Below, in pieces: positions 492 to 7,576 of a DNA stretch of 7,576 nucleotides; the first letter of the stretch is position 1, and every line of letters begins with the position of its first letter. The stretch is from positions 1 to 7,576 of the forward strand of contig NZ_JAYKGW010000225.1 of NCBI RefSeq assembly GCF_035285525.1, given 5' to 3'. The position numbers and the translations under genes were made by a program. The DNA is from Okeania sp. (GTDB lineage Bacteria > Cyanobacteriota > Cyanobacteriia > Cyanobacteriales > Microcoleaceae). The notes below the pieces were generated by a model. That model saw only the letters and a program-made list of their open reading frames with translations, ran no database searches and had not been told where the DNA came from.

Positions 492-555
492 CGTCATCCC
501 ATCACCCCATCACCCGATCGCCCCATCACCCTATCAATCTGTCAACCCATGCTCC
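492..555. repeat. Degenerate octamer repeat (CATCACCC-like, period 8), C-rich on plus and G-rich on minus
   Basis: Reads in register as cgtcatcc/catcaccc/catcaccc/gatcgccc/catcaccc/tatcaatc/tgtcaacc/catgctcc. It overlaps the stop codon and last codons of the response regulator. It resembles cyanobacterial STRR-type short tandem repeats. Confidence 0.8.
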
Positions 556-1226
556 AAAGCATATCGAACTAATTCTGTTCGACTATTTGTTCCAGTTTTA
601 GTGAATAGTCTACTCACATATTTTTCCACATTTCTCACACTTGTATTTAAGTCTCTAGCAATTTCTTTATTCATTAAACCTCTAGCTACTAAATCTAAAA
701 CACTCTGTTCTCTAGGAGTCAAATCTATTTTTATTGGTGAAGGACTTTGAGCGATCGCATTCTTCCCCATCAACATTGCCTTGATTTCCGCAATTTGATT
801 TGCTAAAGCAGCAATATCAGGAGTATTTTCCCCTTCATTAGTTGTTTGTGCAGATGCTTGACGCTTCAACAAATTTTCCACAATAGCGATCAACTCTTCT
901 GGATCAAAAGGTTTAGAAAGGTAAGCATCACAACCTGCTTGATAACCCTGAATACGATCTGTAGTCATTCCTTTAGCAGTCAAAAAAACCACAGGTAAAG
1001 CTTGAAACCTTGGTTCGTCTCTTAATTTTTGCAGAAATTGATAACCATCTACTTGAGGCATCATCACATCTGTAATTACTAAATCAGGTAAACCTAATTG
1101 CAAGATATCCCATCCTTCATTAGCGTTACTAGCGGCATTTACTTCAAAACCACTATCTTCTAAATAAGCTTGTACGGCTTCCCGTAATCCAGGCTCATCA
1201 TCTACTAATAATATTTTTCCTGACAT
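534..1226 (-). CDS. Two-component response regulator, receiver domain plus LuxR/NarL (GerE)-type HTH output
   Basis: 230-aa ORF. Receiver signature: D9-D10 (LLVDDEPG), phospho-acceptor D53 (LVITDVMMP), T83 (FLTAKG), K105 (LSKPF). C-terminal LuxR-type HTH: LTPREQSVLDLVARGLMNKEIARDLNTSVRNVEKYVSRLFTKTG. It may be the conserved cyanobacterial Rre1/Ycf29-like NarL regulator, but I cannot verify that from memory. No histidine kinase gene is adjacent. Confidence 0.93.
   Translation of the reverse strand: MSGKILLVDDEPGLREAVQAYLEDSGFEVNAASNANEGWDILQLGLPDLVITDVMMPQVDGYQFLQKLRDEPRFQALPVVFLTAKGMTTDRIQGYQAGCDAYLSKPFDPEELIAIVENLLKRQASAQTTNEGENTPDIAALANQIAEIKAMLMGKNAIAQSPSPIKIDLTPREQSVLDLVARGLMNKEIARDLNTSVRNVEKYVSRLFTKTGTNSRTELVRYALEHGLTD
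751..758. repeat. HIP1 octamer GCGATCGC
   Basis: Exact gcgatcgc inside the response regulator gene. HIP1 is a highly iterated palindrome typical of cyanobacterial genomes. It is the only exact copy in the window. Confidence 0.7.
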
Positions 1227-3092: not shown

Positions 3093-3899
3093 GTGAAAAC
3101 AGACAGCATTTTCTATGAACTATTTCTCACATTTCCAGAGAGTTTTTTTGAATTAATTGGTATTAATAAACAGGAAGCTAATAATTATAAATTTACTTCC
3201 CGTGAAGTCAAACAATTAGCATTTCGTATGGATGGATTATTTATGCCTAAAAATAATAATCCAGCTAAACCGTTCTATTTAGTAGAAGTACAATTTCAAC
3301 CCAAAAATGAATTATATTATCGTATTTTTACAGAACTTTTTCTGTATTTCAAACAATATTGACCCATTCATCCTGGGAGGGTAGTAGTCATCTATCCAAG
3401 TCGTAGTATTGAGAGGGAAGAAGCTCATCAATTTGGAGAAATTTTAAGTTTAGAAAGAGTCCAACGAATCTATTTAGATGAGTTAAAATCTAATTCATTA
3501 GGAGTAGGAATTGTTAAACTGGTAGTAGAACCAGAAGAAACCGCAGTCGATCTGGCTAAGTCGTTAGTTGAAAAATCTAAAGCTCAATTAACAGATCCAG
3601 TCAGACAACAAAATATTATCGAATTATTAGAGACGATAATAGTTTATAAATTACCAGAAAAAAGTCGGGAGGAAATTACAGCAATGTTTAGTTTAGGTGA
3701 TTTGAAACAAACTAGATTTTATCGAGATGCTTTTGCTGATGGTGAACAACGAGGAGAACAAAGAGGCCAACAGAAGGCCAAAGAAGAAGCAGTTACTCGA
3801 TTGCTCAAATTAGGATTGAGTTTAGAGGTAATTGCTGAGTCTTTAGATTTACCTTTGTCTGTTGTTCAAGAAATAGCTAATTCTGCTAATAATAATTAG
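3093..3899 (+). pseudogene. Rpn-family / cyanobacterial DUF2887-type PD-(D/E)XK nuclease (putative transposase) homologue interrupted by an in-frame TGA at 3360-3362
   Basis: The listed ORFs 3093-3362 and 3684-3899 share one frame. I translated 3363-3683 by hand and found no further stop, so this is one 268-codon reading frame with a single TGA. The N-terminus MKTDSIFYELFLTFPESFFELIG, then FRMDGLF...YLVEVQFQ (a D...ExQ nuclease-like motif), VVVIYPSRSIE, and the C-terminal LGDLKQTRFY...LLKLGLSLEVIAESLDLP module match my recollection of this multi-copy cyanobacterial family. The start is GTG. Confidence 0.8.
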
Positions 3900-4004: not shown

Positions 4005-4244
4005 ATGTTTAGTTTAGGCGATCTGAAACAAACTAGATTTTATCGAGATGCTTTTGCTGATGGTGAACTAATTGGAGAACAACGAGGTGAAGAAATAGGA
4101 GAACAAAGAGGCCAACAGAAGGCCAAAGAAAAAGCAGTTCCTCAATTGCTCAAATTAGGGTTGAGTTTAGAGGTAATTGCTGAGTCTTTAGGCTTACCTT
4201 TGTCTGATGTTCAAAAAATAGCTAATTCGGCTAATAATAATTAG
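4005..4244 (+). CDS. Stand-alone duplicate of the C-terminal module of the upstream Rpn/DUF2887-like gene (79 aa); possibly a gene remnant
   Basis: MFSLGDLKQTRFYRDAFADGE...QKAKE.AV..LLKLGLSLEVIAESL.LPLS.VQ.IANSANNN is nearly identical to residues encoded at 3684-3899, plus 8 extra residues in the GEQRG repeat. Nucleotide similarity runs 3972-4263 versus 3651-3917 and includes sequence past the stop codons. Expression is unknown. Confidence 0.4.
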   Translation: MFSLGDLKQTRFYRDAFADGELIGEQRGEEIGEQRGQQKAKEKAVPQLLKLGLSLEVIAESLGLPLSDVQKIANSANNN

Positions 4245-4502: not shown

Positions 4503-6713
4503 CTAAGGATTTAAAAAGTCTAAATGATTCCCATGTTTTGCCCGTAAAGATGCGACAGAACCTTCCAATTCTAACTTTCCATGATTCAATAAAATAATCC
4601 ATTCTGCTCTACTAATAACCCTTGGTCTATGACTAATAAAAATTGTTGTTTTCCCCCGACGATAAGATAATAAACTTTCCAAAACTTCGGACTCAGCAAT
4701 CGGGTCTAAACCGGAAGTTGACTCATCTAAAATTAATACAGAGGGGTCATTAATAATACCTCTTGCTATTGCTAAACGTTGCCTTTGTCCGCCAGAGATA
4801 TTCGCTCCAAATTCTCCTAAAACTGTTTGATATTTATCAGGTAAACGACTAATAAATTCATCGGCTCCAGAAATTTGACAAGCTTGAACTATTTGTTCAA
4901 ATGTTACCCCCGGCGCTGCTAAATGGAAATTTTCAATAATCGAACGACTCCAAAAATGAGCATCTTGAGGAACTAATACAACTTGTTTTCTAAAAGAATT
5001 TATATCTAAATCTTGCAAATTATAAATACCAATTTGCACATTACCAGATTGCACTGGATATAAACCAGCAATTAATTTAGCAACTGTACTTTTTCCACAG
5101 CCAGACTGACCAATTAAAGCAATAGATTTACCACCAGGAAACCTCACGGAAAAATTTTCTAATAAATCAATTCTTCCAGCGTAGTGAAAACTAATATTAG
5201 AGCAAATAATATCAGCATTATTCTGAATTTTAGCCTCTGGTTTTTGATGTTTTTCATCAGTTTCTGGAGGATAATCAATTACTTCTGAAAGTCGTTTAGT
5301 TGCAGTCTGAACTTTTGCCAATTCATCCATCAATCCCACTAACGTACTCACCAAACTTGATACATATTGATTCATAGCAATAAAAGCCAATAACTGACCA
5401 ATACTTAATTGTTCAGCAATCACTAAATTACTGCCAAACCATAACAGAAAAATATTACCAATATTACTAACTAAACCGGAAAATACATCATTCACAATTC
5501 CAATTTGAGTAGTTCTCAAACTCAAATTAGCCAACTTGCCAAATCTACCTTGATATTCTTCCCAAAACTGAGGAGCGCTAGAAGTAGTTTTGAGAGTCAT
5601 TGCACCTTTAAAAGTTTCTACTAAAACACCCTGAGTTTCTGCTTCTAAAGCAAATAAATTTCTAGTTTTTTGCTGTAATATTGGCAACAAAGCAATAGTT
5701 GATAAAGTCATAACTACCGCCATAAAAACAGCAACTATAGTTAGGGAAAAACTATAGATACACATCACAATCACAGAAACTAAAGCAATAAAAAATTGAC
5801 TAGGCAAACTTACAATTACTTGGGAAACTAACTGATTAATCTCTTTAATATCTGTCAACCTGCTAACAATTTCACCACTACGTCGCGTTTCATAATAATT
5901 TAATGGCAAACGCAAAATTTGTCTGCCAAATTCCATCACTAATCCTAACTCCAAACGTTGAGCAAAATGAGCAATCATATTAGATTGAACTAACTCCAAA
6001 CAACTGCTAAATATATTCATCACAATTACAGCAATTACTACACTGGTAAGTAATTGAAAATCGCCCCTAACTAACACATCATCAGTAAGAATTTGCACCA
6101 AAAAAGGAGAAGCAATAGAAAGTAAACCTAAAACAATATTTAGCAAAAATACTTGAATAATAATTTGTCGATAATACCAAACTCGTCTGAGTAATCTGCT
6201 AATATTACTTACCTTTTCATCAGCCTCAGAAAAAAACCTTTTAGCATCAGGTTCTACTAATAAACAAACCCAATCTTGCCAAGCTTCAGCTAATTCTTTT
6301 GCCGACAAAAAACGAACTCCAATCCCAGGGTCAGCAATCACATATTTATCCCCTTGTCTACCATACAATACTACCCAATGATAGCCTTGCCAATGAATAA
6401 TTGCTGGTAAAGGAGCTTGGTCAATTTTATTTAAAATTCCTGGATTTGCTTTGACAGACCTAGCATTAAAACCAATACTATCTGCACCTTGTTTTAAACC
6501 TAATAATGTGGTTCCTTTTTGATTAGTACCTATAGTTTCTCTAATTCGATTAATTGTTAAATTACGACCATAATATTTAGCAATAGAAGCTAAACAAGCA
6601 GCTCCACAATCTTCCTCACTTTGTTGGAGAATTAAGGGATATTTATTAAAGTTATTTACCTCTCGTTCAGTAGATGCTTTTGGTAATATTGGTACTGGTA
6701 CAATATCTAACAT
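4503..6713 (-). CDS. Peptidase C39 domain-containing ABC transporter (PCAT; double-glycine peptide processing and export ATPase/permease)
   Basis: 736-aa ORF. The N-terminal C39 domain has Gln30, Cys36 (LQQSEEDCGAACL, codon 6606-6608), His112 (YHWVVLYG, 6378-6380) and Asp128 (VIADPG, 6330-6332). The central part is hydrophobic and consistent with a type I exporter TMD. The C-terminal NBD has Walker A GQSGCGKST (5085-5111), signature ISGGQRQR, Walker B VLILDESTSGLD and H-loop FISHR. Confidence 0.97.
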   Translation of the reverse strand: MLDIVPVPILPKASTEREVNNFNKYPLILQQSEEDCGAACLASIAKYYGRNLTINRIRETIGTNQKGTTLLGLKQGADSIGFNARSVKANPGILNKIDQAPLPAIIHWQGYHWVVLYGRQGDKYVIADPGIGVRFLSAKELAEAWQDWVCLLVEPDAKRFFSEADEKVSNISRLLRRVWYYRQIIIQVFLLNIVLGLLSIASPFLVQILTDDVLVRGDFQLLTSVVIAVIVMNIFSSCLELVQSNMIAHFAQRLELGLVMEFGRQILRLPLNYYETRRSGEIVSRLTDIKEINQLVSQVIVSLPSQFFIALVSVIVMCIYSFSLTIVAVFMAVVMTLSTIALLPILQQKTRNLFALEAETQGVLVETFKGAMTLKTTSSAPQFWEEYQGRFGKLANLSLRTTQIGIVNDVFSGLVSNIGNIFLLWFGSNLVIAEQLSIGQLLAFIAMNQYVSSLVSTLVGLMDELAKVQTATKRLSEVIDYPPETDEKHQKPEAKIQNNADIICSNISFHYAGRIDLLENFSVRFPGGKSIALIGQSGCGKSTVAKLIAGLYPVQSGNVQIGIYNLQDLDINSFRKQVVLVPQDAHFWSRSIIENFHLAAPGVTFEQIVQACQISGADEFISRLPDKYQTVLGEFGANISGGQRQRLAIARGIINDPSVLILDESTSGLDPIAESEVLESLLSYRRGKTTIFISHRPRVISRAEWIILLNHGKLELEGSVASLRAKHGNHLDFLNP

Positions 6714-6822: not shown

Positions 6823-6878
6823 GTAGGGGTTTGGTCTCCAAACCCAATTTATAAGGGATTTGGAGACCAAACCCCTAC
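6823..6878. repeat. Head-to-head pair of the GTAGGGGTTTGGTCTCCAAA element (20-bp perfect inverted repeat, 16-nt spacer)
   Basis: gtaggggtttggtctccaaa (6823-6842) and tttggagaccaaacccctac (6859-6878) are exact reverse complements. The same element occurs at 1402-1421. It lies 110-165 nt upstream of the PCAT start codon. Confidence 0.85.
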
Positions 6879-7098
6879 AGATTTTTCTCACATCTCATTC
6901 CTGATTACTATAGCATTGAGTATTAATAGAATTATGTTTCTTAAAAGTTTAGAATAGAAGTGAATTTAACTCCTTCTAAAGTATCCAATTTATAGAAACT
7001 AGGGATTAACCCAAATTCAAAAAGCTAATAGCTAAATACTTATAACGGATAAATTTTACATACAAATAATTCTTTCTATTAATAGACAATTAAATCAG

Positions 7099-7132
7099 AA
7101 AAAAACACCTATAAAATTAATTATAGGTGTTT
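7099..7132 (-). terminator. Rho-independent terminator downstream of the peptide gene
   Basis: The minus strand reads aaacacctataa-ttaatt-ttataggtgttt followed by a T-run; 7099-7105 are seven A on the plus strand. The perfect 12-bp stem is AT-rich with 4 G:C pairs. It lies about 170 nt after the peptide stop codon. Confidence 0.6.
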
Positions 7133-7140
7133 GATTTAAT

Positions 7141-7211
7141 CAGGACTTACGCGAAGAAACCCGGTACGAGCGTAGAAACCGGGTTTCTGGGTTCGCGTGG
7201 CTTTAGTCCTG
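7141..7211. repeat. 71-nt imperfect long hairpin (REP/MITE-like structured element)
   Basis: Nested pairings are caggact (7141-7147) / agtcctg (7205-7211), cgcgaa (7150-7155) / ttcgcg (7192-7197), and gaaacccggt (7156-7165) / accgggtttc (7178-7187). An aggacttac-like end motif also occurs at 2525-2533 and, with one mismatch, at 4358-4366. Confidence 0.7.
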
Positions 7212-7304: not shown

Positions 7305-7535
7305 TTAGTAGCAACCACCAGGACGGTAGGTAACATGATGGTAGTCATAACCAGGACGACGGTAGCTATAACTTACACTGCGACCATATCCATAATCACC
7401 ATAGTAATAGTCACGGCGACCATAACTTACAGAGCGACTGTAACCATCGCAACCACAACCATGACCACCATTAATAGCAGCAGATTCTTCAGTAGAAATA
7501 TCAGAAAAGAGTTCGTTATTTTGAGTTTCTTGCAT
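7305..7535 (-). CDS. Double-glycine-leader precursor peptide with a Tyr/Gly/Arg-rich repetitive core (predicted PCAT substrate)
   Basis: 76-aa ORF with leader MQETQNNELFSDISTEESAAINGG and core HGCGCDGYSRSVSYGRRDYYYGDYGYGRSVSYSYRRPGYDYHHVTYRPGGCY. The leader matches the L(-12)S(-11)xxE(-8)L(-7)xxI(-4)xGG pattern at I-12, S-11, E-8, I-4 and GG, and has F-15. It is co-oriented with, and upstream of, the C39 exporter. No obvious SD, which is common in cyanobacteria. Confidence 0.8.
   Translation of the reverse strand: MQETQNNELFSDISTEESAAINGGHGCGCDGYSRSVSYGRRDYYYGDYGYGRSVSYSYRRPGYDYHHVTYRPGGCY
7308..7463 (-). other. Predicted 52-aa mature core peptide
   Basis: Hand count over 52 residues gives 13 Tyr, 10 Gly, 7 Arg, 5 Ser, 4 Asp, 3 His and 3 Cys. 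There is an internal 18-residue duplication: RSVSY is encoded twice, at 7422-7436 and 7368-7382, exactly 54 nt apart. Confidence 0.7.
7464..7535 (-). other. Predicted 24-aa double-glycine leader
   Basis: The Gly23-Gly24 codons are at 7464-7469 (acc acc on plus, ggt ggt on minus). Cleavage is predicted between Gly24 and His25. Confidence 0.7.
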
Positions 7536-7576
7536 CGTTTTTGCTTGGGATTTAATTCAATGAATAAGATAGTTTA

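Follow-up and report, generated by a model that had tools for sequence, protein, structure and literature searches.

The window analysed here, an entire contig of 7,576 nucleotides (nt) from Okeania sp., carries near one end a small gene for a peptide precursor and, on the same strand and 592 nt downstream of its stop codon, a gene for a peptidase-containing ATP-binding cassette (ABC) transporter, or PCAT (Table 1). The precursor joins a double-glycine (GG) leader to a core rich in tyrosine, glycine and arginine, and a protein search found it 100% identical to an Okeania sp. protein annotated as hypothetical. With its relatives it apparently constitutes a new family of PCAT-exported Tyr/Arg-rich peptides of marine filamentous cyanobacteria such as Okeania and Trichodesmium, undescribed in the literature searched, with four orthologous classes whose cores are under purifying selection and which may serve as cohesive components outside the cell.

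The leader and its exporter

In the consensus for double-glycine leaders, which end in GG (or GA/GS), positions -4, -7, -12 and -15 are hydrophobic and position -8 is acidic. The leader in the window is of this type: it closes with ...ELFSDISTEESAAINGG ahead of the His that opens the core and has G(-1), G(-2), I(-4), E(-8), I(-12) and F(-15) in place, with a non-hydrophobic Ser at -7. It is near-invariant in 17 homologues, and the pattern is kept in 92 peptide genes of related loci. The transporter matches NCBIfam bacteriocin-export ABC families as well as PF03412 (E 6e-37) and can be aligned over its full length with PCAT1 (4RY2; E 3e-109), the stretches DCGAAC, H and ADPG included, so that Cys36, His112 and Asp128 are present and aligned with the catalytic residues of PCAT1. 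A first-pass annotation, made from the bare sequence, had assigned the core to a PCAT-exported peptide, and both the double-glycine leader and an intact PCAT gene were found. Cleavage and export of the precursor by this PCAT are accordingly predicted, and we regard them as very likely.

Between the two genes, ~170 nt downstream of the peptide stop, stands a hairpin (one site, against 0.5 in shuffles) that we infer to be a terminator, which would let the peptide transcript outnumber that of the transporter. The contig ends 41 nt upstream of the peptide start codon, and the window holds no HlyD gene.

A Tyr/Arg-rich core with an internal duplication

Retranslation of the core gave Y13, G10, R7, S6, D4, H3 and C3 (Y 25%, G 19% and R 13%), in agreement with every residue count of the first pass, and reproduced the cysteines at positions 3, 5 and 51, the four Y-x-R triads (YSR, YGR, YGR, YRR) and the four [GS]Y[GS] motifs (GYS, SYG, GYG, SYS). 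Both units of the proposed 18-residue duplication were also found: the 18-mers that begin with core residues 7 and 25 agree at 9 of 18 positions, which is significant against 100,000 composition-preserving shuffles of the core (P ~0.0008). The duplication is visible in the DNA, where the RSVSY codons lie 54 nt apart and a search for repeats gave two direct copies of 35 nt, 74% identical, with the same spacing (7359-7393 and 7413-7447). Against the same shuffles, the counts of Y-x-R (4 against 1.72 expected, P=0.054) and of [GS]Y[GS] (4 against 1.17, P=0.02) are only marginal in this single peptide and are in part a result of the internal duplication.

The mass of the core is ~6.10 kDa (6099.5 Da, reduced average), its isoelectric point (pI) 8.8 and its net charge +3. 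With a grand average of hydropathy (GRAVY) of -1.24 and no hydrophobic stretch in a hydropathy computation, it is, as the first pass had remarked, unlike the amphipathic or hydrophobic class II bacteriocins. AlphaFold2, run on the precursor with a 17-sequence alignment, returned a model without secondary structure and with a mean predicted local distance difference test score of 49.5; this is consistent with a disordered peptide, and the model was for this reason not used for a fold search. Pfam and NCBIfam scans of the peptide returned no family, and a PDB sequence search with the core gave a single chance antibody match (E 0.9). The possibility that the open reading frame (ORF) is non-coding is rejected because of its 17 close homologues, the near-invariant leader and ratios of nonsynonymous to synonymous substitution (dN/dS) below 1 (core 0.46, leader 0.21).

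Table 1. Features of the 7,576-nt window, in window coordinates
Feature	Position	Strand	Extent	Description
Precursor gene	7305..7535	(-)	76 aa + stop	From the ORF list; MQETQNNELFSDISTEESAAINGG leader, then the 52-aa core
Double-glycine leader	7464..7535	(-)	24 codons	MQETQNNELFSDISTEESAAINGG; net charge -5
Core peptide	7308..7463	(-)	52 aa	Final 52 codons ahead of the stop; translation HGCGCDGYSRSVSYGRRDYYYGDYGYGRSVSYSYRRPGYDYHHVTYRPGGCY
GCGC motif	7449..7460	(-)	core residues 2-5	Cys3 and Cys5; from translation
Repeat unit 1	7392..7445	(-)	core residues 7-24	GYSRSVSYGRRDYYYGDY
Repeat unit 2	7338..7391	(-)	core residues 25-42	GYGRSVSYSYRRPGYDYH
C-terminal GGCY	7308..7319	(-)		Cys51 and Tyr52; from translation
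PCAT gene	4503..6713	(-)	736 aa	C39 peptidase, transmembrane domain and ATPase; PF03412, PF00664, PF00005
Terminator-like hairpin	7093..7132	(-)	12-bp stem, 6-nt loop	T-run; perfect 12-nt inverted repeat
Nested inverted-repeat element	7141-7211			GC-rich; between peptide stop and hairpin
DUF2887/Rpn-family fragments	3093-3362, 3684-3899, 4005-4244	(+)		Recombination-promoting nuclease (putative transposase); just downstream of the PCAT gene
LuxR-type response regulator	534-1226			
Interspersed or tandem repeats	1-146, 335-473, 2558-2850, 6823-6878			

Distribution of the family and layout of the locus

A word-indexed search of 5.8 billion proteins returned the 17 close homologues, and a full hidden Markov model search of 1.84 billion cluster representatives only 25 clusters. 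A scan of GTDB species genomes gave 27 loci, which belong to Okeania, Trichodesmium (including T. erythraeum IMS101), Dapis, other Microcoleaceae and two unplaced cyanobacterial metagenome-assembled genomes, with one divergent locus in the Coleofasciculaceae. A few other filamentous cyanobacteria (Symploca, Microcoleus, Kovacikia and Zarconia) have more remote members, which share the leader, have aromatic/basic cores and are all annotated as 'hypothetical protein'. Several of the distant sequences (L034 10001-11001 and proteins P0027, P0032, P0033 and P0036, from Coleofasciculaceae and others) combine the leader with a Tyr/Arg/Pro-rich core that ends in an alternating beta-strand-like tail (TTVNVKVKVNVDS or VNVRVNVDVDS), which hints at an assembly or anchoring module absent from the Okeania and Trichodesmium classes.

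The comparison of loci draws on 34 related records (L001-L034), in which L005 and L023 are duplicates and L008 is the same contig as L001. In the related genomes a divergent HlyD gene is followed by peptide genes of four classes, A, B, C and D, the last in one to three tandem copies, and then by the PCAT gene; judging from these genomes, HlyD-A-B-C-D(n)-PCAT is the ancestral layout. Of the 34 records, 25 (23 distinct contigs) have HlyD at the locus, either beside the peptides or, in Okeania with a split locus, beside classes A-C. Several Okeania genomes have such a split, with D-PCAT (L001, L002, L011, L012, L021 and L024) and HlyD-A-B-C (L007, L015, L020, L025, L026 and L028-L030) at separate chromosomal sites and both halves intact. 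Only D-PCAT is visible in the window, but its PCAT is 94-96% identical to the PCATs of unsplit loci, against 90-91% to the split type, so that the sequence just past position 7576 probably holds HlyD and further peptide genes. In IMS101 the locus includes Tery_0623 (HlyD), Tery_0624 (class D) and Tery_0625 (PCAT), whereas classes A-C have later RefSeq accessions and no GenBank (ABG) accession and were therefore apparently uncalled in the original record.

Four conserved classes of peptide

The 92 GG-leader peptide genes extracted from the related loci fall into these four classes, all of which are orthologous across Trichodesmium, Okeania, Dapis and other Microcoleaceae. Class A has a core of 47 aa with one Cys (YNENxQYRRSFLGFQLCPRSYYGYNR...KGNIRGYY) and class B one of 31-47 aa with a single, C-terminal Cys (HGYYGRY...RRPVRYYSRRRYYGGCY; ~35% Tyr and 27% Arg). 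The cores of class C, of 42-48 aa, usually have two Cys, one near each end (HYYDDCYGYGR..RRPVSYHYRSY...YDCY), and those of class D, the type found in the window, have 51-60 aa and always three Cys (GCGC...GRSVSY...YRR...GGCY). The GCGC motif occurs in 27 of 27 distinct class D genes and the C-terminal GGCY in 26 of the 27; two Y-G-R-[SP]-V-x-Y-x-Y-R-R copies are conserved, and the class shows Gly-Tyr repeat expansion along with its tandem amplification. The penultimate Cys, invariant in the alignment of 17 homologues, is common to classes B, C and D, as is R-[PS]-V-x-Y. Loss of the Tyr/Arg pattern or of the Cys positions among homologues had been named in the first pass as grounds for abandoning its proposals; both are conserved.

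The family is consistently hydrophilic and basic, with class means of -1.2 to -1.9 for GRAVY and 9.4-10.2 for pI, a net charge of +3 to +12 across most members, 25-35% Tyr and 12-27% Arg; the window peptide is the least basic member of class D. All four classes are enriched for Y-x-R (z +2.5 to +7.0), and class D has an excess of Y-x-Y (z +5.4) and a deficit of YY; because the sequences are related, these z-scores overstate independence.

The class A-D genes are real and their cores are under purifying selection. The dN/dS of the cores is 0.19 in class A, 0.40 in B, 0.23 in C and 0.46 in D, and that of the leaders 0.16-0.50; in class A the core is even better conserved (83% identity) than the leader (76%). 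Bacteriocins and ribosomally synthesised peptides with post-translational modifications (RiPPs) usually combine a conserved leader with a hypervariable core, and the conservation of classes A-D is the opposite of this pattern.

It had also been proposed that an N-to-C disulfide closes the peptide into a loop. This fits the conserved terminal cysteines of classes C and D, and the pair in class C suggests such a loop; it does not account for the third Cys of class D, nor for class B and D-like variants without GCGC, which keep the C-terminal Cys only. Since these retain just that residue, its role would extend beyond an intramolecular loop, and it probably also acts between molecules, most simply through an intermolecular disulfide.

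A proposed cohesive or matrix role

Overall, the peptide resembles an enzyme-modified natural product less than it does a 'sticky' extracellular matrix peptide or an antimicrobial of unusual type. We tentatively favour an extracellular cohesive or matrix role, to which we give somewhat less than an even chance. The C39 domain of the adjacent PCAT would cut the 24-residue leader while the 52-residue core is pumped out, the outer-membrane step being presumed, from homology and context, to involve an HlyD-family adaptor encoded elsewhere and a TolC-like channel. Outside the cell the core would behave as a multivalent 'sticker' peptide, untailored beyond disulfides, whose alternating Tyr and Arg and Y-G-R-S-V-S-Y-x-Y-R-R repeats could engage one another, and anionic sheath or exopolysaccharide, through numerous weak interactions of pi-cation, pi-pi and charge type. 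The conserved cysteines (1, 1, 2 and 3 in A, B, C and D) might provide looping and intermolecular disulfide linking. Trichomes, sheaths or colonies would thereby have in the peptide a matrix component with cohesive or adhesive function.

Among systems studied by experiment, the nearest is EbfG1-4/PteB of Synechococcus elongatus PCC 7942, in which four tandem GG-motif proteins are PCAT-exported and furnish an adhesin and amyloid biofilm matrix, an extracellular and non-antibiotic structural role that has been demonstrated. That system and the present family are both cyanobacterial, with tandem small GG-leader genes beside a C39 ABC transporter (A-B-C-D(n)-PCAT in the relatives of the window) and no tailoring enzymes. 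Their cores differ, those of EbfG carrying hydrophobic amyloid hotspots (A-Phi-N-I-Pi), whereas those described here are very hydrophilic, Tyr/Arg-rich and cationic; mature EbfG1-4 have, according to the source paper, no homologues in other cyanobacteria. If the cohesive role is right, the two systems would be functionally analogous, on completely different sequence chemistry. A self-assembling matrix or adhesive peptide was one of two hypotheses of the first-pass annotation. Orthology, purifying selection, the EbfG-like layout and the failure to find an immunity gene leave it plausible, with self-assembly as a predicted property. Indirect support for a matrix role comes from the clade-wide vertical and syntenic retention of the locus, from selection that is purifying and not diversifying, from the failure to find an immunity-like gene, and from the tandem amplification and Gly-Tyr expansion of class D. 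The hydrophilic, basic cores with their predicted lack of structure, the enriched Y-x-R and Y-x-Y spacing, a Cys number fixed in each class and the persistence of both halves where Okeania has split the locus point the same way. Similar low-complexity composition is also known from the mussel foot protein Mfp-3 and from FUS-type [G/S]Y[G/S] domains. Adhesion by Mfp depends on conversion of Tyr to 3,4-dihydroxyphenylalanine (DOPA), and no Tyr-to-DOPA enzyme was seen at these loci.

Several points weigh against a cohesive role. The amyloid hotspots of EbfG have no counterpart in class D, in whose sequences no A-Phi-N-I-like hydrophobic motif is visible when EbfG is compared by its published description. 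The window copy has the lowest charge of its class (net +3), so that the argument from polyanion binding is weakest here. Tailoring enzymes can be encoded far from their substrates. Clade-wide conservation also fits a conserved defence cocktail, cationic Arg/Tyr-rich linear peptides such as myticalin A, with its PRY repeats, can be antimicrobial, and the literature searched held no paper on the peptides or on Tery_0623-0626.

A more elaborate version of the cohesive role, which we consider unlikely, would make A-D a PCAT-secreted multi-component 'curable glue' that coacervates, the classes with each other and with anionic exopolysaccharide. Cys valences of 1, 1, 2 and 3 would then correspond to caps, chain extender and brancher and would fix the material covalently; oxidative Tyr coupling might add links, and a sulfotransferase encoded beside the PCAT in Trichodesmium (see below) might tune the glue by Tyr sulfation. 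If this is true, trichomes, sheaths or colonies would be held together by a prokaryotic equivalent of mussel-foot, resilin or extensin chemistry.

An antimicrobial peptide as the main alternative

The main rival, a strong alternative even if we hold it to be on the unlikely side, is a cationic antimicrobial, class II microcin-like or part of a host-defence-like cocktail, in which the four exported peptides would bind the anionic envelopes of competing or epibiotic microbes and inhibit these with no need of a dedicated immunity protein. A PCAT and HlyD with tandem GG-leader peptides are the classic export layout of bacteriocins and microcins, and class II representatives such as colicin V, exported by CvaAB, share with the present family the double-glycine leader, the PCAT, the HlyD adaptor and peptides of ~50 residues, sometimes several per locus. 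The positive charge of most members points the same way. The cores described here, however, are without an amphipathic or hydrophobic segment and are conserved and orthologous across genera, neither diversifying nor patchy, rather than strain-variable.

Closer likenesses in composition are found outside bacteria. The Arg/Pro/Tyr-rich myticalins have been described as linear cationic antimicrobial peptides, and the basic Gly/aromatic NLP/CNC peptides of nematodes are infection-induced, although the NLP/CNC review states that the antimicrobial activity of the latter had not been directly tested. Myticalin A and NLP/CNC (YGGYG) resemble the present peptides in combining Tyr and Arg with Gly, Ser or Pro in 30-60 residues and in being basic, secreted and non-globular; they differ in origin and secretion route, and the likeness is compositional only.

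A class II bacteriocin or microcin would be expected to have a dedicated immunity gene in its locus; no conserved small hydrophobic immunity-like ORF was found in the gene calls of six loci or in a homology check of five small neighbouring ORFs, a survey that included no systematic hydrophobicity screen. DUF4327 and small ORFs near HlyD were considered as immunity candidates and rejected as soluble proteins or repeat-element artefacts. The CPBP family often supplies bacteriocin immunity, and an Rce1-like CPBP intramembrane protease gene (L001 8615-9460 (-)) adjoins a class D gene, immediately upstream of it; it is limited to this one genome, Okeania sp. SIO2C9.

Less probable readings: a modified or a signalling peptide

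The second hypothesis of the first pass was a RiPP whose aromatic-x-basic triads are crosslinked. More broadly, Tyr could be modified before export by cyclophane formation at aromatic-x-basic motifs, by oxidative coupling or by O-sulfation, through a distant enzyme or a TPR-sulfotransferase; we regard this as quite improbable. The motif itself is conserved and enriched, and in triceptide chemistry radical S-adenosylmethionine (radical-SAM) enzymes such as WprB crosslink aromatic-x-Arg motifs. What is missing is a co-encoded radical-SAM (SPASM) synthase. Radical-SAM crosslinking enzymes are encoded next to their substrates, and neither radical-SAM nor P450, YcaO, LanM or tyrosinase genes were called in six loci with Pfam gene calls. 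The CxxxCxxC motif occurs in 0 of 233 ORFs of at least 150 aa across 35 sequences, taken up to 10 kb to each side. The first pass had advised a search for tailoring genes beyond position 7576; pursued through the 34 related loci to a distance of 10 kb from the peptide genes, it brought to light neither a radical-SAM or P450 gene nor any other conserved gene for tailoring, which leaves the crosslinked product unsupported while the motif on which it was built stands. From this absence we lean towards a core without enzymatic tailoring beyond disulfides.

Sulfation has a more specific precedent in RaxX of Xanthomonas, a GG-leader peptide with a sulfated Tyr that is processed and secreted by a PCAT (RaxX/RaxST/RaxAB). 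The present system resembles it in the PCAT-cleaved GG-type leader, the HlyD-type adaptor and the Tyr-centred core, and three D-Y dipeptides can be read directly in the window core. In some genomes of the Trichodesmium clade a sulfotransferase gene also stands beside the PCAT gene: a giant TPR protein with a C-terminal Sulfotransfer_2 domain (PF03567, E 6e-29) directly follows the PCAT in IMS101 (L009 12839-19057), and counterparts in L016 (10754-13849), L014 (10251-13352) and L031 (6311-9156) bring the number of genomes to four. IMS101 and L016 have the gene intact, and L014 and L031 have it in fragments; neither the window nor Dapis contains it, nor do most Okeania loci. As a conserved neighbour it was therefore rejected, and with this distribution it is not required by the system. 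PF03567 is mainly a family of carbohydrate sulfotransferases, and the TPR-fused protein is presumably not of the RaxST/TPST type. RaxX, moreover, has one sulfated Tyr, not 13.

Least probable of all is an exported signal or metal-handling peptide. It would serve as a pheromone to which the producer population responds, or carry Cys/His/Tyr ligands (HGCGC...GCY) for Cu, Zn or Fe at the cell surface. GG-leader/PCAT systems do export pheromones such as ComC, ComA is among the closest solved homologues, the window holds a LuxR-type response regulator, and the H-G-C-G-C motif and C-terminal Cys are conserved. Against this, that regulator and the other window neighbours are not conserved beside the locus in relatives, and no gene for a histidine kinase adjoins it. 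A set of four long, low-complexity peptide classes is not typical of pheromones; the His of H-G-C-G-C is missing from many class D members, and classes A and B have a single Cys.

Novelty and significance

The kind of system is known; the chemistry of the cargo and the four-class organisation are new. In the passages of Table S3 of Wang et al. 2011 that were consulted, the group VII Trichodesmium precursors lie near 1.419 Mb, and the IMS101 locus, near 1.01-1.02 Mb, is not among them; the strings INGGH and INGGY are absent from that file, of which the consulted passages give locus tags and coordinates, not sequences. A Trichodesmium paper that mentions HlyD proved irrelevant.

What the family offers is a small group of conserved, secreted peptides that have an exporter of their own and are amenable to experiment (Tery_0623-0625 and three genes unannotated in the original IMS101 record); in the libraries searched, no bacterial counterpart of their chemistry is described. 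Nitrogen fixation and mat formation by Trichodesmium and its benthic relatives are of major ecological importance, and the means by which their trichomes aggregate into colonies are poorly understood. A matrix function would extend the EbfG paradigm of structural, non-antibiotic PCAT cargo by a new sequence logic; an antimicrobial one would make the peptides a new hydrophilic type of bacteriocin that has no immunity gene. Either way, the default 'bacteriocin' annotation of such loci is corrected.

Neighbouring genes and other elements

In the unsplit loci the upstream flank is syntenic, DUF4327 preceding HlyD in ten of them; the gene, just past HlyD, encodes a soluble protein of 72 aa (L003 3252-3470 and nine other loci). 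Further out, both unsplit loci for which genes were called, L003 and L004, encode an FHA-domain Ser/Thr kinase, joined in L004 by a PP2C phosphatase; the locus could be regulated by these proteins. Downstream of the PCAT gene, at a distance of 1-4 kb, many Okeania and Dapis loci have a gene for a HEAT-repeat protein of 613-641 aa (L001 15129-16970, L017 15066-16988, L027 14548-16473 and six others); in L017 (Dapis) and L027 its N-terminal sequence resembles a signal peptide. It would be unusual for Tyr/Arg-rich peptides to have a secreted HEAT-repeat protein as partner. The protein was rejected as a conserved neighbour, being present in some lineages only and not in the window.

Where other genomes have HEAT or sulfotransferase genes, the window has the DUF2887/Rpn-family fragments, which include two near-identical C-terminal pieces in tandem and look like decayed mobile-element debris. 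The GC-rich element between the peptide stop and the hairpin consists of nested inverted repeats (AGGACTTACGC...GAAACCCGGT/ACCGGGTTTC...GCTTTAGTCCT); compared with the related loci, the element and its flanks gave scattered repeat fragments only, and an Rfam scan of the whole window gave no match. The remaining repeats of the window comprise arrays of 45 nt (x3.3), 69 nt (x2) and 155 nt (x1.9) and a 23-nt near-perfect palindrome (GTAGGGGTTTGG...CCAAACCCCTAC). They have related copies in other loci and yield spurious ORFs (MLGFVPQPNL, WRPNPY).

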